Positions 1,579 to 53,252 of a stretch of 64,000 nt of DNA are shown piece by piece (the first letter of the stretch is position 1; the number at the start of each line of letters is the position of its first letter). A program made the position numbers and the translations under genes. Under the pieces are notes generated by a model. That model was not told the DNA's origin. It did not search any database and saw nothing but the letters and a program-made list of their open reading frames with translations. Location of the stretch: positions 18,559 to 82,558 of the forward strand of contig CAYYSG010000001.1 of NCBI GenBank assembly GCA_964474375.1, given 5' to 3'. The DNA comes from an uncultured Candidatus Saccharibacteria bacterium (GTDB taxonomy: Bacteria; Patescibacteriota; Minisyncoccia; Phycocordibacterales; UBA9973).

Positions 1579-2667
1579 CTATATTGAGATAGGCATCATC
1601 AAATACCTAAAACTGTCTCCTTGTGCGCTCTTTGCTATAAAAGGCTTGTTATCGCCAAAATATGAAATAGTTGCACTGTCTCCCGGCATAGAATTAACCA
1701 ACGTTTTCAAATGACTACCTAGTAGTATGCCTGAAAAATTATCCCCTTCTATTTTTGAGTTTATTATATATTCACTATCACCTCCAGTAGATGTTTTTAC
1801 AGAAAAAATAGTATTTTCTTTTTGGACACTGAAATTAATATGGTTATTATCACTACGAAGTTGCATTAGGAATTTAAGTGCAGCGTCTAGATCTGCTTTT
1901 AGGAAAAATATTTTACTTTTTTCTTCTTTAGGAATAATAGCGGTGTAGTCTGGAAATAGCCCCATTGTTAGTTTAGCTACTATGGTTGTTGTTTTTGTTT
2001 TTATTTCAAACAAAGTTTCACTATATGAGCCAATAAGAGCTCCGTCACTTTGTTCTATTATTTTTAGAATATCCGATGCTTCACGTGCTGGTAGTAGAAA
2101 AGATACTTCTTTTGTAGTTGTAACTTGTTCTTTATATTCGATTAGTTGAAATGCATCTGTTGAAACAGAAGTTAGGCTATTGTTTTTAAAAGTTATAAAA
2201 AGAGAAGCTAATTCTGGCTTGATATCAGTAGTACTAGCTCCTGGTATTGTAATTTGAAAAGCTCTTTTTAAATTACTTGCTGGCAATGTTATGTTTTCCC
2301 CTGCCACAGTTGGTATACTCGGCATGTCTTCACCATTCTGGTATGGTAATTTAGCTTTTGCTATTTTTGTTTTGATTTCTACAAAATTTTCTTTAAAAAT
2401 AAAGTTTACTTCATTTGCATTACTCACACCTGAGAGTATTCTCTCTAGTGTTTGAGTTTCTACAAAAAATTCACCTTGTTCTTTGTTTTGTATTGGAAAA
2501 TTAACAATTACAGCTAAAGATAAATTAGTTGTACTAATTGTAAAACTACCATCTTTGATAGTTATTCTTGATAACTTTAAAGCTGGATGAATTATTCCTT
2601 TTAGAGAAATTCTTCCTATTGCTCTTATGATGTCATCTATGTATTTTTTCTCTATGCACAGTTCCAT
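1579..2667 (-). CDS. dnaN: DNA polymerase III beta subunit (sliding clamp)
   Basis: 362 aa, immediately downstream of dnaA on the same strand. Three-domain beta-clamp-like layout with a typical N-terminus (MELCIEKK...LKLSRITIKDGSFTISTTNLSLAV). Confidence 0.8.
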   Translation of the reverse strand: MELCIEKKYIDDIIRAIGRISLKGIIHPALKLSRITIKDGSFTISTTNLSLAVIVNFPIQNKEQGEFFVETQTLERILSGVSNANEVNFIFKENFVEIKTKIAKAKLPYQNGEDMPSIPTVAGENITLPASNLKRAFQITIPGASTTDIKPELASLFITFKNNSLTSVSTDAFQLIEYKEQVTTTKEVSFLLPAREASDILKIIEQSDGALIGSYSETLFEIKTKTTTIVAKLTMGLFPDYTAIIPKEEKSKIFFLKADLDAALKFLMQLRSDNNHINFSVQKENTIFSVKTSTGGDSEYIINSKIEGDNFSGILLGSHLKTLVNSMPGDSATISYFGDNKPFIAKSAQGDSFRYLMMPISI

Positions 2668-2840
2668 ATATTATTTATGTTTAAAATCTTATTAGTTCTA
2701 TTAAGCCTGTGGATTATGGATAACTCTTTATTATTGATGTATATAAAGGTTTTAAAAATATTCTTTTACACAATCAATCTTGTTAGTAAGGGTATATTAA
2801 TTTTCATTTGTATTATTTATTGACTTATCCACATTTTTTC
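2668..2840. promoter_or_regulatory. Candidate oriC: AT-rich dnaA-dnaN spacer with DnaA boxes
   Basis: Perfect DnaA box TTATCCACA at 2825..2833. Near-consensus boxes tgtggatta (2708..2716) and tatggataa (2715..2723). AT-rich tracts at 2670..2700 and 2725..2820. Confidence 0.6.
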
Positions 2841-4196
2841 CTATTTGAATAACGACCTTATCCTCTCCATTTCAGACATTAATCCAGTGTTTGTTTCTAA
2901 TTCTTGTTTAATTTTTTCATAACTGTGTATAACTGTCGTATGATCTTTACCTCCCATTTTTTGACCAATCAAAGGAAAAGATAGATTAAAATCCTCACGC
3001 AAGACATACATTATGATTTGTCTTACATGCACTACTTCTTTACGACGAGTTTTTTCATAAATAGAAGCACTGTCTAAATGATAAAATGACGATATTACTT
3101 TAACAACTTCTTCAACAGATATTTGTTTTTGGGATTTAACACTGTTTTTAATGATATCTTTGATTTCTTGCAGGGTCAGGTTTCTCTTCTTTATATCGGC
3201 CTGCAACGCGATTGTTTTTACGTTGCCCTCTATCTCTCGGATATTACCTTCAACTGATGCTGCAATGTATTCTACACTCTCTGTAGGCAAACCTACTCCT
3301 AGCTTAGACAAATTAGACCGTATTATAGCTACACGTGACTCATAATCAGGTTCATGAACATCAACGATCATTCCTTGGGAAAATCGTGAGCGTAGTCTGT
3401 CTTCTAACCCTGGAATATAGTTCGGGTGCTTATCAGATGAAAATATTATTTGTTTATTAGCTTCGTATAGCATGTTAAAAAGATGAAAAAGCTCATCTTG
3501 AACCTTCTCCCCTTTTCCTATCATTTGGATATCATCCATAACAAGTACATCATAAACACGATATTTGTCTTTAAATGTACCCATAGCTTTATTTTGAATA
3601 GCACTGACGCATTCTATTACAAACTTCTCAGCGCTAGTGTAAAAAACCTTCTTTTCAGGAAAATGTTTTTTAATAGCATTACCTACTGCTTCGATCATAT
3701 GAGTTTTACCAAGACCCGTGTTCCCGTATATAAAATATGGGTTATATAGCATACCTGGGCTACGAACTACAGCTTGTGCTCCAGCGTTGGCTAGCTCGTT
3801 AAACGAACCGACTATCATATTGTCGAATGTATAACGAGGATTCAGTCCGTCCTCTTTGTTTACATACATGTCCTGTATAGGTAAAGAAGGATTAGTAACC
3901 TGTTTCGGGTTTATTATTCTAGGTAGCGCTTCTGCATCGTATTTTGCTACAGTAAATTCTACATTTTTAATAAATGAAGCTTGGTCAACTAATGACTTTA
4001 ATATAACTTTATGAAATTTATTATAAAGCCAATCCTTTGCGAATTCATTTGGTACCCCAATGAACACAACACCATCTTCAATTTTTACTATATGAGTTTG
4101 TTTGAACCAAGTTGTAAAATTAGGTCTTGATACTATCTTTTCAAGGTTACTTAGGCACTCTTCCCAGAGACTCTTTGGGTCAACATCAGTTTGCAT
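2841..4196 (-). CDS. dnaA: Chromosomal replication initiator DnaA
   Basis: Walker A GNTGLGKTHM, Walker B/sensor LVMDDIQMIGKGEKVQDELFHLFN, and a C-terminal DnaA-box binding helix-turn-helix (VVHVRQIIMYVLRE). 451 aa. Confidence 0.95.
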   Translation of the reverse strand: MQTDVDPKSLWEECLSNLEKIVSRPNFTTWFKQTHIVKIEDGVVFIGVPNEFAKDWLYNKFHKVILKSLVDQASFIKNVEFTVAKYDAEALPRIINPKQVTNPSLPIQDMYVNKEDGLNPRYTFDNMIVGSFNELANAGAQAVVRSPGMLYNPYFIYGNTGLGKTHMIEAVGNAIKKHFPEKKVFYTSAEKFVIECVSAIQNKAMGTFKDKYRVYDVLVMDDIQMIGKGEKVQDELFHLFNMLYEANKQIIFSSDKHPNYIPGLEDRLRSRFSQGMIVDVHEPDYESRVAIIRSNLSKLGVGLPTESVEYIAASVEGNIREIEGNVKTIALQADIKKRNLTLQEIKDIIKNSVKSQKQISVEEVVKVISSFYHLDSASIYEKTRRKEVVHVRQIIMYVLREDFNLSFPLIGQKMGGKDHTTVIHSYEKIKQELETNTGLMSEMERIRSLFK

Positions 4197-4249
4197 AGAA
4201 CCATTATACTTAATATAAGGAATACCAGTATATTGAAAAATCTTATTAT

Positions 4250-4271
4250 CTGTGGGTAAGTTGTGTATAAC
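4250..4271. promoter_or_regulatory. Two DnaA-box-like sites upstream of dnaA
   Basis: tgtgggtaa (4251..4259) and tgtgtataa (4262..4270), each one mismatch from TGTGGATAA, in the divergent dnaA/rpmH spacer. Confidence 0.45.
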
Positions 4272-4290
4272 TAGTTAAAACTGTGGAATG

Positions 4291-4319
4291 TTGCTATTTT
4301 ATAACTTTTCTGGTATTAT
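4291..4319 (+). promoter_or_regulatory. Sigma70-like promoter for rpmH operon (TTGCTA-17nt-TATTAT), with the -10 ending 8 nt before the ATG
   Basis: ttgcta at 4291..4296, a 17-nt spacer, tattat at 4314..4319, and the rpmH ATG at 4328. This implies a leaderless or near-leaderless transcript. Confidence 0.4.
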
Positions 4320-4327
4320 CACCCTGT

Positions 4328-4462
4328 ATGTCAGTCACTTATAACCCAAACAAGAGAAAGCGCGCAAAAACTCACGGTTTTTTGGTGCGTACTGCTTCCA
4401 AAAACGGACAGAAAATCATCCAAGCTCGTCGCCGAAAGGGTCGTGCTAAGCTTGCAGTATAA
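4328..4462 (+). CDS. rpmH: 50S ribosomal protein L34
   Basis: Not in the ORF track because it is under 60 aa. Translation MSVTYNPNKRKRAKTHGFLVRTASKNGQKIIQARRRKGRAKLAV matches the L34 consensus (..KRKR..THGF..R...G..VL..RR.KGR..L). Confidence 0.9.
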   Translation: MSVTYNPNKRKRAKTHGFLVRTASKNGQKIIQARRRKGRAKLAV

Positions 4463-4467
4463 TAATT

Positions 4468-4785
4468 ATGCTTAAAAAAGAGTCAAAGCTAAACGCCGAA
4501 GACCTTTTAAAGCTTAAAAAGCAAGGTAAAAGAGTGTTTTCCACTCTTTTTTCTGTTACATATTTACCCGAAAAAACTTCTAAATATGCAGTTACTTGCC
4601 CTAAAAAGGTCTATAAAAACGCTGTGGACAGAAACCGTGCAAAAAGACGGGTTTTTTCGGTTATTTCTAAAATAACCCCACAAAATAAAGGTTTTTATGA
4701 ATTTTTTGTTAAAAATGACATAAATTCTCTAAAAATTGACGAAATTAGGTCAGAAATAGTTAGAATCCTATGTCCAAAATCGTAA
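4468..4785 (+). CDS. rnpA: Ribonuclease P protein component
   Basis: RnpA signature AVDRNRAKRR, and its position between rpmH and yidD. Confidence 0.85.
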   Translation: MLKKESKLNAEDLLKLKKQGKRVFSTLFSVTYLPEKTSKYAVTCPKKVYKNAVDRNRAKRRVFSVISKITPQNKGFYEFFVKNDINSLKIDEIRSEIVRILCPKS

Positions 4786-4997
4786 TTTGGCTTATAAATC
4801 AATATCAAAAGTATCTTTCCAGGGATACTGGAGTTTTTCCGTCCAAAACCCCAGTTTGTGTCTTCTACCCTACTTGTTCAGAATATTCAAAACAGGCTTT
4901 TATGAAGTTTGGATTTTTCAAAGCACTCTTTCTTTCAGTAAAAAGAATCTCAAGATGTCACCCTTGGCAAAAGAATCACTTTGACCCTTTGCCTTAG
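4770..4997 (+). CDS. yidD: Membrane protein insertion efficiency factor YidD
   Basis: Motifs CVFYPTCSEY...RISRCHPW (the conserved Cys/His motif of YidD). Overlaps the rnpA 3' end as is typical. Confidence 0.85.
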   Translation: MSKIVIWLINQYQKYLSRDTGVFPSKTPVCVFYPTCSEYSKQAFMKFGFFKALFLSVKRISRCHPWQKNHFDPLP

Positions 4998-5016
4998 CTC
5001 TGGTAGAATGCAAGCT

Positions 5017-5763
5017 ATGTGGAATACATTTATATATACACCAATATTAAACATATTGGTATTGCTTCTCTCTTACGTAACATTCGGCGACTTAGGTTTT
5101 GCTATAGTTATAATAACTATTTTAATCAAAGCATTACTCTTCCCTCTTTCTAAAAAGGCTACAGTTTCTCAGATTGAATTATCTCGAATACAAAGCGATA
5201 TCAATGCAATCAAAGCTAAAAAGCTTTCCAAAGAAGAAGAAGCTCGCGAAACATTTGCTTTGTATAAAGAAAAGAAGGTTAATCCTTTTTCTGGATGTCT
5301 TATTATGATAGTGCAGTTGCCAATAATCTTTGGACTATATTATGTATTTGCTCGAGGTTTGGATTTTTCAGTTGCTCCACTTTATTCTTTTGTGGAAGCT
5401 CCCGCTTATATAAACTCAATGTTTTTAGGGTTTATTGATTTACTAGCTGTTAAGTCTTTACCAATAGCAATCTTTACTGGTTTGACTCAGCTCGTACAAG
5501 CACATCTTTCCCCTACTCAGAAAATCCAAGCCAAGTCTAATTCTGGACAAACAGGATTTTCTGCTGACTTACAAAAAAGCATGCAAACTCAAATGAAATA
5601 CGTATTTCCTGTAATTGTTGGGTTTATTTCATACAAAATTCAGGCGGCTGTGGGTTTGTACTGGATAGTAAACAACCTGATTACAATAGTACAAGAAAGA
5701 GCTATTGCTAGGTCTGTTCATAAAAAGGATAATCTTGTAATAAAGTCAGAAATAGTTAAATAA
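5017..5763 (+). CDS. yidC: Membrane protein insertase YidC (short Oxa1-like form)
   Basis: Multi-TM protein with an LLFPLSKK...KEKKVNPFSGCLIMIVQLPI region like the YidC C1 loop / TM2 region. The ORF is open from 4981, and the start may be 5008 or 5017. Confidence 0.8.
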   Translation: MWNTFIYTPILNILVLLLSYVTFGDLGFAIVIITILIKALLFPLSKKATVSQIELSRIQSDINAIKAKKLSKEEEARETFALYKEKKVNPFSGCLIMIVQLPIIFGLYYVFARGLDFSVAPLYSFVEAPAYINSMFLGFIDLLAVKSLPIAIFTGLTQLVQAHLSPTQKIQAKSNSGQTGFSADLQKSMQTQMKYVFPVIVGFISYKIQAAVGLYWIVNNLITIVQERAIARSVHKKDNLVIKSEIVK

Positions 5764-5831
5764 GCTTGATTTATAAGCCTTATAAAAGTTAAAAACTTGA
5801 ATAAGGCTTTTTCTTATGCTACAGTCTTAAT

Positions 5832-6317
5832 ATGGTCAAAACTAATGCTGAAGCACAAGAATTTGTTAAAAACCTGCTAAACACCATAGATGCTAGCTAC
5901 GATAGCATCGAAACAGTGTTTGATGAGGATAGCGGTCTTACTACTATTAGTGTTAAATCAAAAGATGGACGGCTGCTTATCGGTAAAGACGGAGAAACCC
6001 TAAATGCACTATCGACTTTACTCCATAGATATTTAGAATCTGGACTAAAGGAAAATGAATCCCCTATTTCTATATCACTCGACGTTAACGATTTTCAAAA
6101 AAAGCATATTGAAGATATAAAAACCAAAGCTCATATGATGGCTGAACGTGCTAAATTCTTCAAATCTAGTATCGAGCTTGATCCAATGAATGGGTACGAG
6201 CGCAGAATCATTCATACATTTCTTGAGAAAGATAAAAATATTTTAACTGACTCGACAGGAGAAGGTAAAAACAGAAGAATTGTTATAACTTACACAGAAG
6301 ACAAAACCGCTATATAA
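5832..6317 (+). CDS. khpB: KhpB/Jag RNA-binding protein (Jag_N, KH, R3H)
   Basis: C-terminal R3H motif GYERRIIHTFL, and its position after yidC. Confidence 0.8.
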   Translation: MVKTNAEAQEFVKNLLNTIDASYDSIETVFDEDSGLTTISVKSKDGRLLIGKDGETLNALSTLLHRYLESGLKENESPISISLDVNDFQKKHIEDIKTKAHMMAERAKFFKSSIELDPMNGYERRIIHTFLEKDKNILTDSTGEGKNRRIVITYTEDKTAI

Positions 6318-6325
6318 TAGCGGTT

Positions 6326-7414
6326 TTACTTTTTAGCGCACCCTGTCCATCCATATATGGAAAAATGTCTACCGGTAACCCAGCTGTATGTTCCGGCGCC
6401 TAGTCCTAGGTCTTTTGCTTTTTTGACCATTGCATCACCTGTTTGTCCTTCAAAGACAGTACACAGTTTAGATTTATTCGCTGATTGGTCTATATAAGTC
6501 AGGACATCGATATCGTTATACAAGTTACTATCAGTAAAAGCAAAGTCAACACATCTTCCAGTTTTGTGGCATGAGTTTTTGTGTTTTACGCTTTGAGGCA
6601 TTGCCTCGGTTATTCTATAGTTTCCTTTTATTTTAGAATTTTGGTCTAGTAGTTTTTTAAAAGCAGCCAGTCTTTCAGCTAGTTCTTTCGAAGCGTATTT
6701 GCCATTTTTTGTTTCCCATCCAGATATTGTTAAGTCGCTACAGTCCCCTGTAACTTTTTCATTAGGTTCTCCTTGGCAGGTATCCTTTACGCTTGTGGCT
6801 TTGTCGTAATTAAAGTCTTTTATGATATTTCCATCTTCACCATATGTAAAACTAACAACTGGCCAGGTTCTGGTATTTATTAAATTCCCCCCTATTCTTA
6901 TCTTCACTAAATCAGGATTAATAGTATAAAGTATCAAATAAGCACAAAACATGAGTATAAGTCCTGCTATTGCTGTAGTTATTTTACTTCTACTATCACT
7001 TTTCTTCCATACGGTATCTGACCCCATATACTGCACTCCATAAACCATGATCATGACTACAGTAATAGCACCTGCCATAGCTATAGCTAGCCTTATTATA
7101 AAGTTTACAAAGTCAGAGAAGCCGCCTGTCTCACCTTCTTCTTTTTCTTTGTCTGTTAGTTCTCTACAGCCACGGATACTACCATCAGCGTTGTATTCTG
7201 GTTTACCCGTATCACAAATCTTATCTATATTGCCTATTTTGTTTATTAGTTTGTATGAATCAGGTTTAAAATTTACATTATTTGTGTTTGTGGTGGCTTT
7301 GAGAGTTGTACTAGTATCAACATAGCTATTAGTTAGTACAGGAGTTTGAGCTACGGCTGCACTGCTTAGAATAAATCCCCAAAATAAAATAAAAATAAAT
7401 ACTTTATTCTTCAT
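6326..7414 (-). CDS. Fusion protein: signal peptide plus VirB2/TrbC-pilin-like two-helix membrane module, then a Cys-rich LAS/M15-type peptidase-like domain
   Basis: N-terminus carries a signal peptide and two hydrophobic helices (FVNFIIRLAIAMAGAITVVMIMVYGV; ITTAIAGLILMFCAYLILYTI). C-terminus has SCHKTGRCVDFA (SxHxxGxxxD, LAS metallopeptidase-like) and a later GRHFSIYGW His. Confidence 0.4.
   Translation of the reverse strand: MKNKVFIFILFWGFILSSAAVAQTPVLTNSYVDTSTTLKATTNTNNVNFKPDSYKLINKIGNIDKICDTGKPEYNADGSIRGCRELTDKEKEEGETGGFSDFVNFIIRLAIAMAGAITVVMIMVYGVQYMGSDTVWKKSDSRSKITTAIAGLILMFCAYLILYTINPDLVKIRIGGNLINTRTWPVVSFTYGEDGNIIKDFNYDKATSVKDTCQGEPNEKVTGDCSDLTISGWETKNGKYASKELAERLAAFKKLLDQNSKIKGNYRITEAMPQSVKHKNSCHKTGRCVDFAFTDSNLYNDIDVLTYIDQSANKSKLCTVFEGQTGDAMVKKAKDLGLGAGTYSWVTGRHFSIYGWTGCAKK
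6891..7123 (-). repeat. 233-bp direct repeat copy A (100 percent identical to 9403..9635)
   Basis: Read base by base: identical from cctattcttatcttcactaaatcagg to aagtcagagaagcc. Lies inside the pilin-like module coding region of 6326..7414. Confidence 0.85.
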
Positions 7415-8654
7415 AAGACCACAAGCTCATATTTTTTTTATTTATAAAGCTAATCAAATTACCGGAATTATTTATAGATGTTTTCCATACATCAATAGGA
7501 TTTTGGGCATCAGATGATATTTGGGACATTTCGCGAGCATTTAAATTCATAGTGGTATAACGAACGATTCCGTCATTTGTTTCTATTTCCCCGCTGTACC
7601 ATGCATCAGGATACAACACATTGTCGAAAGACTTTGGCACTGCACAAGTAAAAATAGTTTCATCAGAACTCCATGAACATTTTTCAACTAGACCCATTTT
7701 GCCTAACTGGCGCATTGTGCCATCTTTTAAATTATATGTAGACATAACCGGACCAGATTGCTCGGTCACTGCCCGCAGGATATAGTTTCCATCAGGTGAG
7801 ACTTTTGTGGTTAGGCCATTTAAATTCCCCCAGATTTTAGTTAGTTTTTTATTTTTTAGATCCAGGGTATAGGCAAACCCAGGTGCTAATTCTGTAGCTT
7901 TTGTTGTTAACAGTAGTTTTTCTTTGTTTATAAATTTAACGTGCCATTCACTAATAGGTGAAGAATAAACCAGCTCATCTTTAGCTGATTTTTCCATAAA
8001 TATACTAGAGCCATTTTGGTTTTTGCTAATGTATATAAATTCTCCGTCTTTAGCAAAGTCAAAAGAGATTATGTTGTCCGGCAATATTTTTACAGAATCC
8101 CTCCCTAGTGTTCCTAAGACTGATTTTTCTGTTATCATATCGGCATCTAAATATCTAAACAAAACCCTATTTCCATCTGGTGAAAAGTCAGCAAACAAAA
8201 CCCTAGGCAATGCCGTGTCGGATATTAAATAACTATTACTGTATTTAGGAATATAGTCATAAATATAACCATTTTCTCGGGATACATATCTAATAGCATC
8301 TATTTGGTCATATATTTTATTACCTTTTGCGTCGACGCCAGTTTCGCCGGCTATTTCGTCGTCTCTTCTTACTATAATAGAACCAGCTACGTTTTCAGCA
8401 ATGAGTTCTGGGTATCCAGTTGTATTTACTGCACTATCCCCCTCATCACCTCCACCAGGCAGTATGTCTCTTATAATGTCACCAATAGTACTGCCATCAT
8501 TATTACCAAAAGGTAAAAAATCTTTAGCTGTTATTTCAGTTATTTGGCCACTGTCTAGTTGTTTTTTTAGTGAGTTATTACGAATAACCATAAAACCAGC
8601 CATTCCTATTATTAGAATAACTAAAATTATTCGTATTAGTCTGCCTTTGTGCAT
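7404..8654 (-). CDS. Membrane-anchored beta-propeller protein (TolB/PD40-like repeats)
   Basis: N-terminal TM anchor (IRIILVILIIGMAGFMVI) and repeated SPDGNRVLF / SPDGNYIL PD40-like motifs. Confidence 0.5.
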   Translation of the reverse strand: MHKGRLIRIILVILIIGMAGFMVIRNNSLKKQLDSGQITEITAKDFLPFGNNDGSTIGDIIRDILPGGGDEGDSAVNTTGYPELIAENVAGSIIVRRDDEIAGETGVDAKGNKIYDQIDAIRYVSRENGYIYDYIPKYSNSYLISDTALPRVLFADFSPDGNRVLFRYLDADMITEKSVLGTLGRDSVKILPDNIISFDFAKDGEFIYISKNQNGSSIFMEKSAKDELVYSSPISEWHVKFINKEKLLLTTKATELAPGFAYTLDLKNKKLTKIWGNLNGLTTKVSPDGNYILRAVTEQSGPVMSTYNLKDGTMRQLGKMGLVEKCSWSSDETIFTCAVPKSFDNVLYPDAWYSGEIETNDGIVRYTTMNLNAREMSQISSDAQNPIDVWKTSINNSGNLISFINKKNMSLWSYEE

Positions 8655-8696
8655 AAAATTATTATAACATAGAGATGTCGTAATAATTAGTGTTAA

Positions 8697-9824
8697 TTAT
8701 TTGTCTTGCAAGACACAGGCATCGTATAGATTCTTACGGTTTCTTGATTCGGTTTTTGCAAAGTCACTAGCTGGTTTACAGCTACCTCCGCCATATGCTC
8801 GAAATGTATTTTCTATATCACCCTTACATTTTTCAAAATTATATTGCAGTAGCTCTGCTCCAGCTTTTATGGCTTTGGTTGCATCGTACATATCTTTTGG
8901 ACAGACCGTGGTTTTTGTTTTTGCTGTTAGTCTGCATCTAGGTTTGCCATCTTCTGGAAAAAATGTAAATTGCATAATCCCTACCCCATGAGAAAATCTC
9001 CAGTCTAGTCCTAAATCATCACGACTTGGATTACTGGCGGTGAATATACCGCCCGTTCCATGGTCATCATTTAAAAAACTAGAGTTAGTTCCTAATAGGT
9101 TATTGTTTGGGTTAAATGTAACGCCTTTGTATGTTTTACCTGATGCAATGAATTGCCTTCTGGCTGGTACGCTTTTAGGAATAGGTGCATTTTCATCGTG
9201 CCCTATTACGCTAGGGTTACCTCGGGATTCACGGAGAGCCACCACCTGCAACATGCAGTGATGTATACCATAAGATGGAGCAATGGATTTAATTTGGTTA
9301 TAATAAGCAGTCCTAGCGAATGTCGTTGTTACCTCTCTTTCTAGTCTGTATTGGCTGGCTGGGTTCCATTCGGACCATGTATTTTCTTCTATTTTGTTTC
9401 CTCCTATTCTTATCTTCACTAAATCAGGATTAATAGTATAAAGTATCAAATAAGCACAAAACATGAGTATAAGTCCTGCTATTGCTGTAGTTATTTTACT
9501 TCTACTATCACTTTTCTTCCATACGGTATCTGACCCCATATACTGCACTCCATAAACCATGATCATGACTACAGTAATAGCACCTGCCATAGCTATAGCT
9601 AGCCTTATTATAAAGTTTACAAAGTCAGAGAAGCCATTAGGGCTGACATCTTGCACTTCTTTTATATTACCTATTTCGTTTATTAGTTTGTATGACCCAG
9701 GCTTAAAATTTGCATTGTTTGTGTTTGTGGTGGCTTTGGGTAGGTTATCCGATTTTACTATTGTTGGGTAAACAAATCCTGTGGCAAAAATCAGAACCAG
9801 TATAAAAAGTGTTTTCTTTAACAT
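8697..9824 (-). CDS. Fusion protein: VirB2/TrbC-pilin-like two-helix module plus lytic-transglycosylase-like (VirB1-like) domain
   Basis: N-terminal ~130 aa are nearly identical to those of 6326..7414. C-terminal domain has LRESRGNP ... GVGIMQFT ... RAYGGG, resembling the SLT motifs ES / GLMQ / AYNxG but with a long insertion. Confidence 0.45.
   Translation of the reverse strand: MLKKTLFILVLIFATGFVYPTIVKSDNLPKATTNTNNANFKPGSYKLINEIGNIKEVQDVSPNGFSDFVNFIIRLAIAMAGAITVVMIMVYGVQYMGSDTVWKKSDSRSKITTAIAGLILMFCAYLILYTINPDLVKIRIGGNKIEENTWSEWNPASQYRLEREVTTTFARTAYYNQIKSIAPSYGIHHCMLQVVALRESRGNPSVIGHDENAPIPKSVPARRQFIASGKTYKGVTFNPNNNLLGTNSSFLNDDHGTGGIFTASNPSRDDLGLDWRFSHGVGIMQFTFFPEDGKPRCRLTAKTKTTVCPKDMYDATKAIKAGAELLQYNFEKCKGDIENTFRAYGGGSCKPASDFAKTESRNRKNLYDACVLQDK
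9403..9635 (-). repeat. 233-bp direct repeat copy B
   Basis: Identical to 6891..7123. Lies inside 8697..9824. The flanks are only ~85 percent similar. Confidence 0.85.
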
Positions 9825-9827
9825 AAG

Positions 9828-10775
9828 TTAAAAATTAAGCTCCAATGCAGATTTGAATTCTTGGTATAGTGATCGAGGATTATCGTAATTTAGATTCAGG
9901 CGAACAACTCCACTGTCATCGGGCCGAATAAACGAAATCAGTTCTGGAATTTTTTGGTTATTTACATCTTCCCCACTAAGGTTCCAGACAATATTTGGAT
10001 TCAGTGTTTTATTTATACCCAAAGGAACACCAAAAACTGAAATAGTATTGTCATACCCAGCAACTTCATTTTTTATAGTGGTCCCTAGATTAAGTCCAAC
10101 CAAAGGACTGTATTCGTAGAATAATATTTTGTTTCTAGTAAAAGGTATACTAATAGAAGAAGTTTTGGTTTCAGAATTGGGTTTTATTACAGATACTGTT
10201 ATGTTTTCGGATCTTTCTATTTCTGTGTTTTTAAAATCAACAAAATTATTAGCACTGCTAGATTTCGTTTGGAGTGATTTGCCATTTCTTGCCCAAGAAT
10301 ATGAAACTTGTCCCCCACTAGGGTTCAGGACAGCTACGCGCAAATCATTTTCTCTTATTGGTATACGCTTACCCATGTAAAAAGGAATACTTTTACTATT
10401 CATTGCTTCCCAGATTAAGTCATAAGACATAGATGAAAAAGTTATATTTTTAGTAACCTTAGACCCACCAACTAGTGTTATTTCAGCATCAATGTTATTT
10501 TGTGCTCCTGGAGTATTACTTGATTCTATTGTAAATTCTTTTTCACCATAGCCAGATTTAGTCACACTGCCGTATGACCATTTAATATAAGCTAAATCTA
10601 AGTTTGTTTCGTAGCTTGTTAGTGTTGCTGTTACCTCCTCGCCTTCTCTTGGATCTACTGGATTAATACTGATGGATATATTAGGTTCAGATTCAAAAGT
10701 ACCCTGCGCCAGAGCACTGCCAGTTATAATAAATATAAATAATGCTATACCTAACAGGTATTTTTTCATATACAT
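9828..10775 (-). CDS. Secreted hypothetical protein within the T4SS-like cluster
   Basis: Signal peptide MYMKKYLLGIALFIFIITGSALAQ. No recognisable motifs. Confidence 0.5.
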   Translation of the reverse strand: MYMKKYLLGIALFIFIITGSALAQGTFESEPNISISINPVDPREGEEVTATLTSYETNLDLAYIKWSYGSVTKSGYGEKEFTIESSNTPGAQNNIDAEITLVGGSKVTKNITFSSMSYDLIWEAMNSKSIPFYMGKRIPIRENDLRVAVLNPSGGQVSYSWARNGKSLQTKSSSANNFVDFKNTEIERSENITVSVIKPNSETKTSSISIPFTRNKILFYEYSPLVGLNLGTTIKNEVAGYDNTISVFGVPLGINKTLNPNIVWNLSGEDVNNQKIPELISFIRPDDSGVVRLNLNYDNPRSLYQEFKSALELNF

Positions 10776-10786
10776 ATTATAGCATA

Positions 10787-12649
10787 CTAGTTTTGCTGTG
10801 CTTTATTTTTTTCAGCTTGAATAGCCAGAACTTGAGCTGGGTCAGATGTGATTATTTGTTCCTCTGTATAAGACGAAACTATTTTGATGGCTACGTGTTT
10901 TAGTCCTGCGAAAAATATCCCTTCCCCTACGTTGGCTTCTAGTAGTGTGTATTTTTCCGCATCGGTTAGATTAAATGCATCTTTTAGGACATCAATAGTC
11001 GTTGGGGACTGTTTTAGAAGCAGTTGCATTGAAGAGTTAGTTAAAATAGGTCTACCATATGGTGATTTTAGGAAGTCCTCCACGTCTTGTGTAATTGTAG
11101 CTAATCCAAGGTAATATTTACGTCCACGTTTTGCAATACTGTATAGGAAACTAGCTGTGTCTTCGTTTTTCATCATCCACCAAGCTTCATCCACTACCAT
11201 TAGTCTCTTTTTTAGATTCTTACGGATTTCATTCCATATGAAATGAGTAATTATATACATTGCTACAGGTTTTAATTCATCTTCCATATCACGTATTGAA
11301 AACACAACGAACTTCCGGTTTATGTCGACGTTACTTGGTTTGTTTAAGAATCCTGACCATGAGCCGGTTGTGAACTTTTCTAGCTTTGTAAGTACTGAAG
11401 AAGTTCCGTCCATACCAGCTAACACAACTGCAAAGTCGGACAATAGTGGTGGTTCAATAGTACTAAAGTCTGAATCAACGGTAATGTCCTTTAGGGCATA
11501 AGTCTCGGTGATTGCACGGTCGATAATAGCGTCTTCTTCGGGAGTTAGCCCACCCAGCATTACGCGAAATAGCCCCACTAGATTGATTGTATTTTGGCGG
11601 AGTACGTCTGCATTTGTTTCGTCTTTACTTGGGATCGGTAAATCAAAAGGATTTATATGGTGGTCAGATGATAGTGATACATTAAAATATCGCCCCCCTA
11701 CTGCGTCGGACAGGTATTCGTATTCTTTTTCCGGGTCGATAACTATAACATCAGTATCGAACATGAGTGAACGCAGAATTTCTAGTTTGGTTGCGAAAGA
11801 TTTACCAGAACCTGATTTTGCAAATGTTACAGAGTTATAGTTTTCCAATGAAAATCGGTCAAAAATAATAAGTGAATTATTATGCTGATTGATTCCATAT
11901 AAAATTCCTTTGTTGCCTGTTAGGTCAAACGAAACAAAAGGAAAAGTACTGGACAATGGTTCTGTGTTCATTTTTTGCATTACACGCAAATTGTCTTTTG
12001 CCATCGGGATGCTGGACAGGAATGCCGTGTCTTGCTGAAAAGTCGCTGGTTTGATGAATATCATTTGTGAATCCAGCTGACCTTTTATTTCGTTCTCGGC
12101 CTTGAATAGATCGGATTCATTTTCGGCATATATGTTGATATATAGTCCTACTTCGAACATTTTTTCTTGTGCTTGCTGCAAAGAATCGCGCAGTTGCTCT
12201 AAATCTCTATATGCTGATTCTAACATTGGGTCACGAACCATACCCTTGCTCTCTCTTTCGGATATTTGACTTTGGACTTCAGCTACCTTTTTCTGGAATT
12301 GGGACATTATTTTACCAGTATCTACTGGGGTTATGTTTATGGAAATATCGAAAACCCTGTCCAAGTTTATTATAGGTGTTAGCCAGTTGTCAGTTAGTAT
12401 ACTAGGATATCCTACAATATAGAATGAACGTACTATCATGTCCCCTAGATTAAGAGCAGTAGGCATTATCTGCAGTGCTGATGGGGCTATAATGTCTTGT
12501 AGTTCGAGCTGAGCTGAACTAAAGATTTCTTCTGGTCTAACAGACAAAGAACCAAGAACACTAGATGATTCTTTTTTGTTTCCGCCACCAAATATTTTTG
12601 AAAATATAGACATATTATTGGTTACTTTGCTTAGGGATATGACCAGCAC
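10787..12649 (-). CDS. virB4: VirB4/TrbE/TraC-family conjugation-type ATPase, C-terminal ATPase portion
   Basis: Walker A FAKSGSGKSFATK. ..HHINPFDL, Walker B LMVVDEAWWMM, and RGRKYYLGLATITQ. Overlaps the upstream partner ORF by 35 nt. Confidence 0.7.
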   Translation of the reverse strand: MLVISLSKVTNNMSIFSKIFGGGNKKESSSVLGSLSVRPEEIFSSAQLELQDIIAPSALQIMPTALNLGDMIVRSFYIVGYPSILTDNWLTPIINLDRVFDISINITPVDTGKIMSQFQKKVAEVQSQISERESKGMVRDPMLESAYRDLEQLRDSLQQAQEKMFEVGLYINIYAENESDLFKAENEIKGQLDSQMIFIKPATFQQDTAFLSSIPMAKDNLRVMQKMNTEPLSSTFPFVSFDLTGNKGILYGINQHNNSLIIFDRFSLENYNSVTFAKSGSGKSFATKLEILRSLMFDTDVIVIDPEKEYEYLSDAVGGRYFNVSLSSDHHINPFDLPIPSKDETNADVLRQNTINLVGLFRVMLGGLTPEEDAIIDRAITETYALKDITVDSDFSTIEPPLLSDFAVVLAGMDGTSSVLTKLEKFTTGSWSGFLNKPSNVDINRKFVVFSIRDMEDELKPVAMYIITHFIWNEIRKNLKKRLMVVDEAWWMMKNEDTASFLYSIAKRGRKYYLGLATITQDVEDFLKSPYGRPILTNSSMQLLLKQSPTTIDVLKDAFNLTDAEKYTLLEANVGEGIFFAGLKHVAIKIVSSYTEEQIITSDPAQVLAIQAEKNKAQQN

Positions 12650-13262
12650 TGTCCCCTGGGTTAAATGTTTTGTAATAAAGCTCGATCAAGCCTTCGGTGT
12701 TTAAGGGTACTGACCGTACTCCACAGCGGCCCAGAGTTTGCATTACGATACCTAGTCTTTGTTCTAGCTGGTTTCTTTTTTCATTCCAGTCTACTTCTTC
12801 TTCGGATTCTATTTTTTTTAAGCCCCCAACAGACCCAAAAAATTTTGAGAAAAATCCCCCAGTACGTATTAATGACTGACTATATGGTACAACTATATAA
12901 AAATGTTTTGACATTATGTTTACCCTGCTAGTTAGTTCACGAATAAATTCGATATATTCTCTGGTTTGGAATTTGAGCAAAGGCTCGTCTATTTTGTCGA
13001 GTCTTTCTTCTAGTGTTAGTAGGTATGGTCTAATATCGAATTTTCTGGACTGGACGACTATTTGAGTATCAAAATCGAGCGAATTTAATAGTGATTGGAA
13101 TTGTAATATTATAGACTTTTGTTCGTCTTGTGAGCGCAAAGTAAAGTTAATAGCGGTACACAGTAGTACAGCTCTTAGTCCACCATCATTAAGTTCCACC
13201 ACCCCGTCACGGATGTGTTTTATCGGTACAAATGACTGACTGCTTGGTGCTTTGATTGACAT
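12615..13262 (-). CDS. VirB4-family N-terminal domain, encoded separately in a different frame
   Basis: PIKHIRDGVVELNDGGLRAVLLCTAINFTLRSQDEQKSII resembles the VirB4 N-terminal region. Together the two ORFs total 835 aa, close to a typical VirB4 (~800 aa). Confidence 0.5.
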   Translation of the reverse strand: MSIKAPSSQSFVPIKHIRDGVVELNDGGLRAVLLCTAINFTLRSQDEQKSIILQFQSLLNSLDFDTQIVVQSRKFDIRPYLLTLEERLDKIDEPLLKFQTREYIEFIRELTSRVNIMSKHFYIVVPYSQSLIRTGGFFSKFFGSVGGLKKIESEEEVDWNEKRNQLEQRLGIVMQTLGRCGVRSVPLNTEGLIELYYKTFNPGDSAGHIPKQSNQ

Positions 13263-13263
13263 A

Positions 13264-13692
13264 TTATTTTACTGATTGACCGCTAGATTGGTCTCGGTCC
13301 ATTACGTCTAGACTCCATGCCAATGCTTCTATCTTACCACGGTCTAGGTTTTTCGGTGTAGTTAGGACAGGCTTTTTTGTGGCTATTCCTTTGTTATCCA
13401 TGTCTTTTTTGTGTTCAGGTCTTTGCCAGACATACATACGGTTTTTTGTGTAGTGTGTTAAAAATGCTTGGAACATTAGAATAGCTGGACGAGAATTCGG
13501 CTTCCAGAATGAAAGACTAATAGCTAAGAATAAAAATAAAGCTATAAGTATAAAACCAAAAGTAAAACCCAGATATGTATATGTTACATAAGCCAGGCCA
13601 ACTCCCCCACCTAGATAAATAAATTGCTTAAAAGTCAAAGGCCCAATGACTTTGTCTTCTATGTCTAAAAATCTTGGCATTTGGAATTGCAT
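13264..13692 (-). CDS. VirB3/PrgI-like small membrane protein
   Basis: 142 aa. IEDKVIGPLTFKQFIYLGGGVGLAYVTY then a TM helix, matching the VirB3/PrgI-type pattern (..GLT.rQ...), and located immediately upstream of virB4. Confidence 0.45.
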   Translation of the reverse strand: MQFQMPRFLDIEDKVIGPLTFKQFIYLGGGVGLAYVTYTYLGFTFGFILIALFLFLAISLSFWKPNSRPAILMFQAFLTHYTKNRMYVWQRPEHKKDMDNKGIATKKPVLTTPKNLDRGKIEALAWSLDVMDRDQSSGQSVK

Positions 13693-13733
13693 ACTAATAT
13701 AAGTATATCATAAGAAAATCCCAGAATATATTA

Positions 13734-14405
13734 TTATTCTGGGATTTCGCGGTATAGATCATTTTTCCTGTCACCTGTGGTTACTTTGGGTAAACTAGTT
13801 TCTATTTTGGTGCGGTCTAGTACTTGGTTTTCGTTCTTACTTTTTAGTATATCTTCCCAGGAATCTGATTTTAGGGCAGGTATGGAATTGCTATTCATCT
13901 CTGCTACTTTTTCATGGCTTAACATGCCACTAGGTCTAATGTCGCTGGTTACTCTTGAAACTGGTGCTGGGGCTACCCCTTCAGGTCTTGGAACATCTTG
14001 CATTTCGATGTAGTCGGATAGCTCTTTCTCAATCATGTCGTCGTTTTTCCAGTTGTTCTCTAGTACTGCGACTCTTTCTTTGGTTAGAATATTGGCAAAG
14101 ATATAGTCATGTATACCACCACGGACAGAACTGTTTACATTTGGCAATGCCTGGGTTATTTCATCTTTAACTTCACTTGGTCTAATGAAACCCAGTAATG
14201 TCATTGTAGTTATGTATTCTATCTCACTAACATATTCAGGTGCTAAACTGTAATTTTTAACCATATTTAGAAAGTCATTTGCATAACTTTGACCTAGAAC
14301 ATAGTTCCGTAATTCCGGCTGAATATTTTTAAGCCTATCCATTATTTGAGAAACTTCTTCTTGGGATTCATTAGGTATTAAGTTGATTTTATTATTTTCA
14401 TCCAT
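13734..14405 (-). CDS. Hypothetical protein, T4SS-like cluster
   Basis: 223-aa ORF with no recognisable motifs, gene-dense context, same strand as the cluster. Confidence 0.4.
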   Translation of the reverse strand: MDENNKINLIPNESQEEVSQIMDRLKNIQPELRNYVLGQSYANDFLNMVKNYSLAPEYVSEIEYITTMTLLGFIRPSEVKDEITQALPNVNSSVRGGIHDYIFANILTKERVAVLENNWKNDDMIEKELSDYIEMQDVPRPEGVAPAPVSRVTSDIRPSGMLSHEKVAEMNSNSIPALKSDSWEDILKSKNENQVLDRTKIETSLPKVTTGDRKNDLYREIPE

Positions 14406-14408
14406 AAA

Positions 14409-17400
14409 TTATGCTTTAGGTGGTTGGTATTTGTCAGTTGTGTCGACCTTTGTGTCTTTGTCTTGCCAGCTTCTACCATAGTTTTCATAGAATTTTCTGT
14501 CATACTCTGCCATTCTTACTAGCCCTGTAGCTATTGCTGTTGGTGCTGCTACCCAGCCGAATGGAGCACCTAGTACTGATCCTTTTGCTACGTCGGTATG
14601 TAAGAATGAATCATTGAGTACTGCACCTAATTTGCTTCTTGTTCCTGACGGGCTACTTTTTAGTTGATATGTCATGTTTTCTATATCACGAGCTGCTTCG
14701 GCTACATCTTTCAGAGCCTTGTCTTTTGCTTCACCTTCCATGGAATCTATATCGATTGAATTATAGACTGCCTCGTAAATTCTATTTTTAGCATGTTTAT
14801 TGAGAATCTCGGTGTCTTTTTTATACTTTTTAATGATCTCTTTCTTTTTGTCTTCGTCGGCTCCTGCCCATTCTTTGTCAGTTTTTGCTTTGTTTTCAAC
14901 TTCATTCATTATTTCCATAATGTCAGACCTTTTTGCCATTTTCTCGTCGGTCTCTGCTTCTTCTAGGTCTTTTCCAATTTTTTCTTTATATACGTCAAGA
15001 CCAGTTTTACGTTGGAATATTTTACCAGATTTTTCTCTTTGGAATTGCTTATATCTATCTGCTCTGTCAGTTTTAACTTTTTCCATTGCTTCTTCTGCAC
15101 CTTTTATTCCGATTACATGCATAGCTTTACCTGTTTTTTCATCTACGTATGTATAGCCATCACCTTTTAAGGCATTTAGCTTGTCTTTCTCTATTTTAAT
15201 TTCTTTTCTAATTTCTTTTTCTGCGTTTCCTAGTTTTGTGGCTTCTTTGTTTGCGTCTGTTTGGCCGTCTTCGTGTTTCCTTATTTCTTCTTTTAAGGCG
15301 TTCTTATCTTCTTCCAGTTTAGCTTTTTGACCTTCAAGTAAGACTTTTTTAGCAGTATCTGTCTCAGCGTCTATTTCTTTTTGTTTTTCTTTAATAAGAT
15401 TTTCTTGTTCGTTGACTTTTCTTGTTTTTGTTGATATTTCAGCTGCGTGGTCTCTGGCTACTTGTTGGTAAGAACGCATTTCAGAGAATTTTTCATCAGC
15501 ACGTTCTTTTAGGTCATTAACTATGTCTTCTTGGTTATTTGCTGCACGTTCTGTTTTTTTCTTAACATCTTCCATTTTGTTGTACATTTCTTGGTCGAAC
15601 CCTAGAGAGTCTTCAAACTTTTTAATTCTCTCTGTTTTTCTTTGCATCTGTGCCATGTATCCCCCAGCAGTTGTAGCTGTTTGGAATTGTTTACCAAAGA
15701 AAGGTATATAGTTTGTACCAGCTTGCATATTAACCCCTGTGAATCCTGATACTGCGCTGGCAGCTTTGTTTTGACGTAAATCAAAGCTACCTTTACGTGT
15801 CATATCGAGTGCTCCTACTTTTAGTCTTGCCCATGTGTTGCCTTCGGCTGCTTTTGTCATTAGTTTTTCTCCTGCGGTACTTTGCATATAACGACTAGCT
15901 CTTTTACCTAGTGCATTTCTACCAGCCCAGGCTGCGCCACCTGTAGCTATTGCTGCACCAAATCCAGCTACGCCAGACGCTACTGCTACTAATTTATCCC
16001 CTGCTAGTTTAGCAATGCTCGAAGTCAGGCCTTCTGTCATAGATTTTATTAAATATAAGAATCCAATTATCAGCATAAAAGGTATGATCAAACTCATCCA
16101 CCATTCTATACCCACAACTCCGTCGCCAAATACCGCTTTAAAAGGATTGTTCTTTACAAATAGTACTAGTATCATCATTAAAACTAGGAATATTGGAGCC
16201 TTGAATGCATCTTTTAATAGTCCTTGCATCCATTCTTCAAAACCAACCATTTTTAGACCACTTCTTTGTCCTGATGATAACGACAATGAAAACACTGCTA
16301 AGGGTGAAAGTATAATTGCAAATATAAGCCCTATAATACGGTATATGAACTGCAAAGCTATTTTTAGGAATATCAGCATTGCTATGACGTTAAATATCAC
16401 ACCCATTAGGAGTATCATGAAGACCGTTCCTTTGTTTTCGTCTACTTTGAATGTAGCAGCGTTGTCATCAAGTCCATCTAAGATGATTTTTTGGGGGTCG
16501 TAACCTTCGGCGGCAGTAGATGAAAGACTAATAGCTTTACCATCTGCCCCGTCGGTACGACTAAACACGTTGTAGTATAGTTGGCGCGCAGTAATGTTCG
16601 ATATATCTATAACTATTGTTGTTAGCGGGAATGAAAAGTTAATAACCGTAGCCACTATCAGAGTGTTAACTATTAGTTGCTTAGTACCCTGCCCTATGTT
16701 TAAAACTAGTTTGAATGCTAAATATAGCAACATAAATATAAAGAACAAGTTACATACATCACGAATGAATCTCCAGCCGTCTTTTATATACTGTGCATTG
16801 TATGAATCTGGCTGGATACTATAAGCCAAAACAAAGTCCATGATGCTACCCGCTACACCCAGTAAGAATGCTGTTGGTACAAAAACCATATAGTAAAACC
16901 CAACAACAAGACATCCAGTAAACCAAGTGCCAATGTCTTTCGCATCACATTTAGGCATCCAAGCCGGACCACTACCAGCACTATTGCCTGAGCTTATAAG
17001 GACTGCCCCACCTCTGGATGTTTGTGTTATTTGATCTGGTATTGATACCGAAACAACAGGAGTATATCCATTGTCGTCAAACCAAGGGTCGTGTTCGTTA
17101 GCAAAAAGTCTAAAATAATAAGTTTTGTTTTTTTCAACTTGTAGTGGTTCTAGTCCAAAAACCATACCAGTTTTTGCATCGCTTATGATAGGTGAATCTA
17201 CTTTTTCACCGAATATATACGGGTTTAAGTTTATCTCTTTTACGTCATTACCTCCTACTTTTGGATCAGTGTTACTAGTTGAATATAAAAGATAAAATCC
17301 ATATCCACCCTCATTTGCTGTTCGGGTATCTATTTCTGGGTTATTAAAGCCTTTTGTAAAATTATCCCAGTCACCTCCTGGAATGTCTCCAGGAGATGCT

Positions 17401-19578: not shown

Positions 19579-20184
19579 ATGATAGAAAAATACACTGCAA
19601 AACAATATGATTTGCCAGAACTAACTGGTATTTCCAAAAAAAGTATAGAAGAACATATGAAACTATACGAAGGCTATGTTAAACACGCCAACCTAATAAA
19701 AGAAAAGCTAGAATCAATCCCCGCGGACGATGCCTATACTCGCACCGAACTCATGCGACGGTTTTCTTTCGAGTTCTGTGGTATGCGTAATCACGAGCTT
19801 TATTTTTGGTCTCTTGTTGGTGGGGCTAGTACTATTCCAAATGGTTCAAAGTTAGAATCAGACATCATTCGTGATTTTGGTAGCATAGATGATTTTTTTA
19901 TAAAATTAAAAGAAATAGCTTTGACTCGGTCCGTTGGTTGGGCAATGTTGTCCTACGATGTAACATTCGACCACTTGACTTTGTCTTGGGTGGATGAACA
20001 GCATATAGGGCAACTCATGAACGTGTTCCCTGTTTATGCTATCGATATGTGGGAACATGCTTATGTTTACGACTATCAGCCTAGTGGTAAAAAGAATTAT
20101 CTTGAAGACTATATCAAAAATACAAATTTCGAATCTTTATCTAACCGCTACGAAGTTTTTTGCAGTAGCTTAAAACCTTTGTAA
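19579..20184 (+). CDS. sodA: Fe/Mn superoxide dismutase family protein
   Basis: NHELYFWS and AIDMWEHAYVYDY match the SOD metal-ligand motifs NHxxFW and DxWEHAYY. The N-terminal HH..HH motif is partly degenerate. Confidence 0.7.
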   Translation: MIEKYTAKQYDLPELTGISKKSIEEHMKLYEGYVKHANLIKEKLESIPADDAYTRTELMRRFSFEFCGMRNHELYFWSLVGGASTIPNGSKLESDIIRDFGSIDDFFIKLKEIALTRSVGWAMLSYDVTFDHLTLSWVDEQHIGQLMNVFPVYAIDMWEHAYVYDYQPSGKKNYLEDYIKNTNFESLSNRYEVFCSSLKPL

Positions 20185-50040: not shown

Positions 50041-50072
50041 AAAAAAATAACCCTCTCGGGCTATTTTTTATG

Positions 50073-50143
50073 TGCAGGATAGGAGAATCGAACTCCTGTG
50101 TACTGCTTGGAAGGCAGTCATTCTACCACTAAATTAATCCTGC
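50073..50143 (-). tRNA. tRNA-Gly (anticodon TCC)
   Basis: Reverse complement GCAGGATTAATTTAGTGGTAGAATGACTGCCTTCCAAGCAGTACACAGGAGTTCGATTCTCCTATCCTGCA. 7-bp acceptor stem. Anticodon loop CTTCCAA. T-loop GGAGTTCGATTCTCC. Confidence 0.85.
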
Positions 50144-53125: not shown

Positions 53126-53181
53126 TTGTTACGCATGAAACAGAAAATCCCCGTAATAGGGGATTTTCTTAATGGTTTTTG

Positions 53182-53252
53182 TGCGGGTAAGGAGAATCGA
53201 ACTCCTGTCTCATCCTTGGCAAGGACGTGTCCTACCACTAAACGATACCCGC
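53182..53252 (-). tRNA. tRNA-Gly (anticodon GCC)
   Basis: Reverse complement GCGGGTATCGTTTAGTGGTAGGACACGTCCTTGCCAAGGATGAGACAGGAGTTCGATTCTCCTTACCCGCA. Anticodon loop TTGCCAA. Confidence 0.85.

Follow-up and report, generated by a model that had tools for sequence, protein, structure and literature searches.

A stretch of 64,000 nucleotides (the window) from an uncultured Candidatus Saccharibacteria bacterium (contig CAYYSG010000001.1) was found to encode two paralogous fusion proteins, hereafter genes A and B, which share a short tract of identical DNA. Both genes are on the minus strand. Gene A (6326..7414, 362 aa) is predicted to encode a signal peptide, a pre-pilin segment, a Cys-loop insert, a pilin module, and a LAS/Hedgehog-like zinc peptidase domain, and gene B (8697..9824, 375 aa) a signal peptide, a pre-pilin segment, a pilin module, and an SLT lytic transglycosylase domain. 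A further minus-strand gene lies between them (7404..8654, 416 aa); its product has a hydrophobic segment at the N-terminus and gives a weak signal for PD40/TolB-like repeats. An earlier note on this DNA had named it a beta-propeller gene, a label that we do not retain, as its sole basis is a sub-threshold PD40 match (E = 0.0056, 17.1 bits against a cut-off of 20.9).

As the earlier note had reported, genes A and B share an exact match of 233 bp (6891-7123 = 9403-9635), the longest between them. The two copies form a direct repeat with a spacing of 2512 bp and lie in frame within the two minus-strand open reading frames (ORFs). Copy 1 (6891..7123) encodes residues 98-175 of gene A, which form a T4SS_pilin-like module with two hydrophobic helices (GFSDFVNF...PDLVKIRIG), and copy 2 (9403..9635) encodes residues 64-141 of gene B. 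No synonymous difference was present across the 77 codons. At a divergence of 9%, the level of the neighboring 76-nt segment described below, the chance of 233 consecutive matches is about 0.91^233, or approximately 3e-10. Repeat-finding over the window placed the tract in a 246-nt family at 98% identity; the other repeats were only the 76-nt companion pair and two tRNA-Gly genes (50072-50143 and 53181-53252; anticodons TCC and GCC) that are 73% identical. The GC content of the tract (34.8%, against 36.6-39% in the remainder of the genes) gave no sign of GC-biased conversion. A role of the tract as a regulatory or RNA element was rejected, with no dedicated test, on the grounds that it encodes a known domain in frame and varies freely between genomes.

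In DNA and protein alignments, homology between genes A and B was limited to the N-terminal halves, and the full-length proteins were ~50% identical. On the 3' side of the tract (gene sense), 4 mismatches in 13 nt are followed by unrelated sequence, because the C-terminal domains of the two proteins are non-homologous. On the 5' side, a patchily similar linker and a 75-nt indel are followed by 76 nt at 91% identity and then by poorly similar signal peptides. The identity of ~85% that the earlier note had given for both sides was therefore not recovered on either of them, while the extra insert that it had described in the first gene was present: gene A contains 25 additional residues and a replaced linker (ICDTGKPEYNADGSIRGC...), both absent from B. 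The linker and Cys-loop insert of gene A (7124..7225, minus strand; ICDTGKPEYNADGSIRGCRELTDKEKEEGETG) form the heterology that meets the 5' edge of the tract. The 76-nt pre-pilin segments of gene A (7226..7301, minus strand; KATTNTNNVNFKPDSYKLINKIGNI) and gene B (9663..9738, minus strand) differ at 7 positions, 3 synonymous and 4 non-synonymous, and the pair looks like an older or decaying piece of the homogenized region. A 41-nt likeness of this segment to 20259-20297, within the ComEC gene, was discarded as AT-rich chance similarity.

The 80 residues shared by the two proteins (GFSDFVNFIIRLAIAMAGAITVVMIMVYGVQYMGSDTVWKKSDSRSKITTAIAGLILMFCAYLILYTINPDLVKIRIGGN) lie downstream of the signal peptide and comprise two hydrophobic helices with a basic loop between them. 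Hydropathy analysis of gene A gave hydrophobic residues 3-27, 99-130, and 143-170, and the inter-helix loop (GSDTVWKKSDSRSK) contains 4 K/R. The isolated module matched PF18895 (T4SS_pilin) below the cut-off (E = 7e-4, 20.0 bits against 26.6). A profile of the module built from 24 relatives retrieved stand-alone proteins down to E = 4e-23; these were 58-142 aa long (mostly 104-142), most of them annotated as PF18895 and some also as PF04956 (TrbC/VirB2). TINPDL is among the parts of the module that are conserved across the family. A profile search of the PDB with the module found no solved relative, and a broad profile found no stand-alone pilin in the window, where it matched only the two fused modules. 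Judged by these sequence matches, the shared tract encodes a putative VirB2/T4SS_pilin-type module with two predicted transmembrane helices.

The module pairs were compared between the window genome (W) and seven syntenic Patescibacteria genomes (L001, L002, L003, L008, L011, L014, and L022). L001-L003 were obtained by homolog search and contig retrieval, and 80 loci, all of them in Patescibacteria-type metagenome-assembled genomes (MAGs), came from scanning species-representative genomes; the contigs of P0005, P0006, P0007, and P0009 lay outside the compared set. All seven further genomes hold an identical or near-identical module pair of their own, which answers the suggestion in the earlier note that related genomes be compared. 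The exact tracts between the paralogs were 357 bp in L001, 244 bp in L002, 335 bp in L003, 418 bp in L008, 758 bp in L014, and 352 bp in L022; in L011, the two modules were 92% identical and the longest exact stretch was 107 bp. Over the eight genomes, the DNA identity of the module was 0.92-1.00 within genomes, against 0.50-0.81 between genomes. The gene order of L001-L003 is the same as in the window, with the intervening gene kept between the two paralogs. This shared order, together with orthologous SLT domains, shows that the duplication predates speciation. Modules that are alike within a genome but divergent between genomes, at loci of conserved synteny, are the pattern that concerted evolution through gene conversion leaves, and the claim of the earlier note that the paralogs had recombined gains support from it.

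Strong purifying selection on an extremely conserved module could in principle keep two copies alike with no recombination, and a tightly packed membrane hairpin with a family-wide TINPDL motif would be a plausible target. Such selection would have to act on 77 codons with no synonymous difference in a module that retains only 50-81% DNA identity from one genome to another. Between genomes, the protein identity of the module was 33-89%, compared with 44-74% for the adjacent orthologous SLT domain, so that the module falls to as low as 33% and diverges no more slowly than its neighbor. The lack of synonymous differences and a divergence as fast as that of SLT effectively rule out purifying selection as the cause of the identity, and we regard this explanation as extremely improbable.

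Distant Patescibacteria loci with 2-4 pilin genes gave a module nucleotide identity of 52-77%, and their longest exact stretch was ~33 nt, aside from artefacts of overlapping ORFs. The lack of long exact tracts at these loci indicates that the homogenization is specific to the present clade.

In every genome, the 3' edge of the tract was at most a few codons away from the pilin/hydrolase junction, at which the homology ends. Across the tract edges, identity fell from 100% to ~40-50%, the level expected for unrelated AT-rich DNA. The 5' edge varied. In W and L002, the tract begins exactly past a homologous Cys-loop insert (ICD.G.P.Y.ADG.I..C) that is carried by one of the paralogs, and in L001, L003, and L022, which are without the insert, it extends ~100 nt further upstream. 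In L008 the identical tract begins at the start codon, and in L014 the 758-bp tract takes in a long N-terminal extension. This distribution suggests that heterology at the insert blocks the extension of a heteroduplex, which would explain the incipient divergence (91%) of the 76-nt pre-pilin segment of W. The insert, with its charged tail, is located in the LAS-type gene of W and in the SLT-type gene of L002 (L002:5060-6277), which implies that N-terminal segments were moved between the paralogs or were lost differentially.

The catalytic domain of the second paralog also varied. W has a Hedgehog-like LAS domain at this place, as does L022 judging by motif; L001, L003, and L011 have VanY by model match, L002 has a different H-x-H protein, and L014 has NlpC/P60. 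In L008 (4973-6999) and L014 (1974-6975), the non-SLT gene comes first, so that the order of the paralogs is reversed, and in L008 the pair is contiguous, with no intervening gene.

Two Logan contigs from two sequencing runs (L084 and L085) were 95-96% identical to L003, and each carried a single pilin module; a third match of this kind was reported by the search. This module differed from that of L003 at 15 of the 335 tract sites, while the two copies of L003 are identical to each other; the last homogenization in L003 is therefore younger than the split of the strains. The pilin-SLT gene was absent from L084 and L085 through a clean ORF-sized deletion that joins TAAAAT to AAATA (L084:4700-4760, compared with L003:10001-11148), and the intervening gene and the pilin-VanY gene were retained. 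The SLT fusion is consequently variably present within this species-level group. A crossover across the direct repeats, as the earlier note had proposed, would remove the SLT domain of B, the intervening gene, and the N-terminus of A, leaving a chimera. The deletion seen in L084 differs from this repeat-mediated kind. The rearrangement of hydrolase domains by recombination at the repeat, put forward in the same note, is accordingly plausible, but it does not account for the L084 deletion.

A very recent duplication or domain fusion, occurring independently in each genome instead of ongoing conversion, was also considered. The sharp tract edges beside unrelated sequence resemble a freshly inserted module, the C-terminal partner of the second gene varies (LAS variants, VanY, NlpC/P60), and one strain lacks gene B. 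However, at least seven independent events would have had to give the same order, the same junction, and orthologous SLT domains, and the modules of L011 (92%) as well as the 91% segment of W show the gradual decay expected of older conversion tracts. We therefore consider repeated duplication very unlikely.

It was further considered whether the tract could be an assembly artefact, either through duplication or collapse of a single pilin region or because the assembler erased the differences between two diverged copies. The window and all its relatives are short-read MAG contigs, and repeats that exceed the read length are a well-known source of assembly trouble. The source protein (P0001) occurs on one known contig, and no second assembly of the strain of the window turned up when metagenome contigs were scanned for exact 32-nt matches. 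Against this, eight assemblies of different studies share the architecture, each with its own lineage-specific tract, and contig names in the NODE_ and k141 styles suggest that different assemblers were used. Each of the two ORFs is uninterrupted, in frame, and equipped with its own signal peptide, linker, and catalytic domain, and real differences are preserved in the assemblies (92% in L011; 91% in the 76-nt segment of W). A direct repeat that flanks unique DNA would moreover allow only one linear path through all of the sequence, and at most a few single-nucleotide differences inside the tract could have been smoothed away. The earlier note had marked the repeat as a potential misassembly hotspot. 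This caution applies to the smoothing of single bases and is weakened for the architecture, which recurs in MAGs of different projects, and an artefact as the origin of the tract is highly unlikely.

Domain-limited homogenization of a pilin-type module on two different predicted wall hydrolases, in a type IV secretion system (T4SS) and replication origin context, was thus observed. It is very likely that the 233-bp tract reflects repeated gene conversion, i.e., recurring non-reciprocal homologous recombination, between two paralogs that form direct repeats 2.5 kb apart, and hence domain-limited concerted evolution. Both genes would encode secreted membrane proteins composed of a signal peptide, a short extracellular segment, a VirB2/T4SS_pilin-like two-helix hairpin, and an extracytoplasmic peptidoglycan hydrolase. 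As homology exists only in the pilin module, and in some genomes in the preceding segment, a heteroduplex would start and end only there. The tract would accordingly halt at the pilin/hydrolase junction and, in the genome of the window, also at the 75-nt insert of one copy. Repeated conversion would keep the two modules identical while the module drifts between species, and the underlying process is presumably RecA-type gene conversion. If both proteins fit the same partner or lattice, homogenization would be tolerated or favored; the reason may be a contact that both copies of the module make, either to the machinery or among themselves.

Several points weigh against this interpretation. All of the compared genomes are short-read metagenome assemblies, in which bubble-popping could erase a few true differences, so that "perfect" identity means identical in the assembly. 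The recombination mechanism is read from a sequence pattern. Conversion normally needs flanking homology, and from the razor-sharp edges beside unrelated sequence it would follow that no homology extends beyond the tract, which should then erode. The lack of erosion in seven of the eight genomes hints at selection or at very high rates of conversion. In addition, gene B is missing from a close relative of L003 and is hence not universally required.

Concerted evolution by gene conversion is known for bacterial paralogs such as tufA/tufB of Salmonella and the rRNA operons. As in those cases, the present paralogs are identical including synonymous sites, orthologs diverge, and homologous recombination between repeats, whether dispersed or neighboring, would be responsible. 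Unlike tufA/tufB and the rRNA operons, only one domain of otherwise non-homologous fusion proteins is affected here, and the tract is very short (233-758 bp), bounded by domain junctions, and located in a reduced Patescibacteria genome. Non-reciprocal recombination among pilin or secretion paralogs also occurs in Neisseria (pilE/pilS) and among the surface-protein or VirB2 paralogs of Anaplasma and Bartonella, where it generates diversity (antigenic variation), whereas the homogenization described here removes diversity. The locus would make a clean natural case, in a minimal genome, of concerted evolution restricted to one domain.

The assignment of both genes as hydrolase fusions, which the earlier note had made, was upheld by domain analysis. 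The C-terminal half of gene B matched PF01464 (SLT; 34.9 bits against a cut-off of 21.3), and a RES motif was found at residues 198-200 (ALRESRGNP), the Glu of which is the presumed catalytic residue of the SLT family. For the C-terminal 184 residues of gene A, no Pfam or NCBIfam model matched, VanY, Peptidase_M15, and HH_signal included. A word-indexed homolog search with this domain found nothing, and phmmer against the PDB gave noise only. An exhaustive HMMER search with the domain (encoded by window 6329-6880) retrieved 119 remote relatives (proteins P0048-P0165), and PF18895 was present N-terminally in 33 of the 41 relatives examined. A few also carry fn3 domains.

The invariant positions of gene A were E270, H278, C282, H283, C288, D290, E322, and H350, corresponding to the pattern E, H, C-H, G, C, D, E, H in the alignment of relatives. 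Hedgehog/DD-peptidases are defined by H-x6-D, H-x-H, and the equivalent of E177 (Roelink 2018, PMC6027127). The H-x6-D zinc motif (H283-KTGRCV-D290) was invariant in 30 sequences and aligned with SLHYEGRAVD of Shh, and the invariant E322, at the YE/FE position, aligned with YES of Shh, as the candidate catalytic Glu equivalent to Shh E177. The second motif, H-x-H, was not found in gene A, which has H350-F-S with a single invariant His; HFH occurs in a minority of the relatives. A profile of the domain family matched ShhN in the PDB at E = 7e-6, with TEAxP..H..CH..GxCVD opposite TEGW..H..SLHYEGRAVD. An alignment-based AlphaFold model of the C-terminus reached a pLDDT of 83, and its top Foldseek matches were Hedgehog N-domains and the VanY-like LdcB, with modest scores (probability <=0.99, E = 8e-3, TM 0.37-0.49); a single-sequence model was discarded (pLDDT 35.6). 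Compared with the bacterial Hedgehog/DD-peptidases (LAS, M15), gene A shares H-x6-D, the third His, and the Glu aligned to Shh E177, but differs in having H-F-S, extra invariant Cys residues, and an insertion of ~22 residues before the last His. From the motifs and the model, we call the C-terminus of gene A a putative LAS-type zinc peptidase domain related to Hedgehog/DD-peptidases, outside any confirmed curated family. It would open a family of Hedgehog/LAS-like domains without a Pfam match that occur almost only on T4SS pilins. Both catalytic domains are predicted from the topology to lie outside the membrane.

The genes upstream of gene B share its orientation and constitute the T4SS context (9828..14405, minus strand), consisting of a 315-aa protein of unclear assignment, a VirB4 ATPase part, a VirB4 N-domain/TraC-like ORF, a PrgI/VirB3-like gene, and a 223-aa protein that is likewise unassigned. 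The VirB4 ATPase (10787-12649, 620-aa ORF) and the PrgI/VirB3-like protein (13264-13692) were assigned by domain matches, and the VirB4 N-domain/TraC-like ORF (12615-13262, 215 aa) by NCBIfam similarity; all three are on the minus strand. Apart from this VirB4 N-domain likeness, NCBIfam gave no useful matches for gene A, gene B, and their neighbors. The pilin modules are thereby encoded together with VirB4 and PrgI/VirB3-like genes. Downstream, jag, yidC, rnpA, dnaA, and dnaN (1579-6317) directly abut the T4SS locus; they were assigned by length and by synteny with Pfam-annotated relatives, and the dnaA side of the locus is the probable replication origin region.

Published Patescibacteria T4SS are chromosomal, MPF-FATA-like, relaxase-less, and near the origin, with VirB2-like pilin genes, and VirB1 homologs are tied to virB4 chiefly in Paceibacteria (PMC12102498; PMC12857230; PMC10633639). 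The present locus, with its genes beside dnaA, matches a chromosomal MPF-FATA-like T4SS, and its context and position, the latter already described for some Patescibacteria, fit the published descriptions (PMC12102498). T4SS loci are essential to epibiotic growth in the single Patescibacteria species tested, and many of the pilin genes are unexplained (PMC12857230; PMC10633639). The published VirB2-like pilin arrays (Wang et al. 2023, PMC10633639; Quinonero-Coronel et al. 2025, PMC12102498) are of the same family (PF18895/PF04956), lie beside virB4 and prgI, often near dnaA, and contain at least two pilin genes in tandem or one non-pilin gene apart. Their pilins are described as highly divergent (mean amino-acid identity 25%, highest 54%; PMC12102498), whereas the modules described here are identical, and each is fused to a predicted cell-wall hydrolase. 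The whole-protein identity of ~50% masks this identity at the level of the module, and the pair would pass for an ordinary divergent pilin array. Gene conversion between paralogs is classical and Patescibacteria pilin arrays are published; no description of pilin-hydrolase fusions or identical pilin modules, nor of such a fusion combined with domain-limited homogenization, was found in our full-text literature searches.

Genes A and B may encode the peptide-cutting and the glycan-cutting VirB1-type hydrolase, respectively, of the origin-proximal T4SS, anchored or recruited via the common pilin module. In this respect they resemble PrgK, TraG of pIP501, and CwlT, VirB1-type enzymes of Gram-positive conjugation systems, in which a glycan-cleaving SLT and a peptide-cleaving activity accompany an MPF-FATA-type T4SS and are membrane-anchored on the extracellular side, a location that is predicted for the present proteins. 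In those enzymes, a single polypeptide with a plain N-terminal anchor combines the two activities; here, the activities would be divided between two genes and the anchor would be a VirB2-like hairpin. The pilin fold would in this clade serve as the N-terminal module of the predicted peptidoglycan hydrolases of the T4SS, and a module kept identical across two enzymes over long divergence offers an argument, drawn from sequence only, for the same partner or lattice.

A more far-reaching proposal, which we regard as rather unlikely, is that the pilin module acts as a portable leader, for assembly or for delivery, of interchangeable wall-degrading enzymes (SLT, Hedgehog-like LAS, VanY, NlpC/P60). 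Gene conversion would hold the module identical because all leaders must co-assemble into, or dock on, one T4SS structure, the enzymes would be displayed or delivered outside the cell, and the tract would double as a handle for swapping catalytic "heads" between strains. The enzymes would then possibly be aimed at the wall of the host bacterium during epibiosis rather than at the cell's own wall. The setting assumed for such a leader is a Paceibacteria-like clade in which the only VirB2-like modules beside VirB4 are enzyme fusions.

Other features were observed in and near the T4SS cluster. VirB4 is apparently split, its 215-aa N-domain ORF overlapping the 620-aa ATPase ORF by 35 nt, and the same split is present in L001-L003 and L084. 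The cluster is headed by a 1417-aa ORF (14409-18662) without a Pfam or NCBIfam match, which the relatives keep (1327-1341 aa) and which may be an extended VirB6-like component. Further, a gene for the ComEC competence channel (20148-21455; PF03772, E = 4e-37) was located ~1.5 kb past the T4SS cluster.

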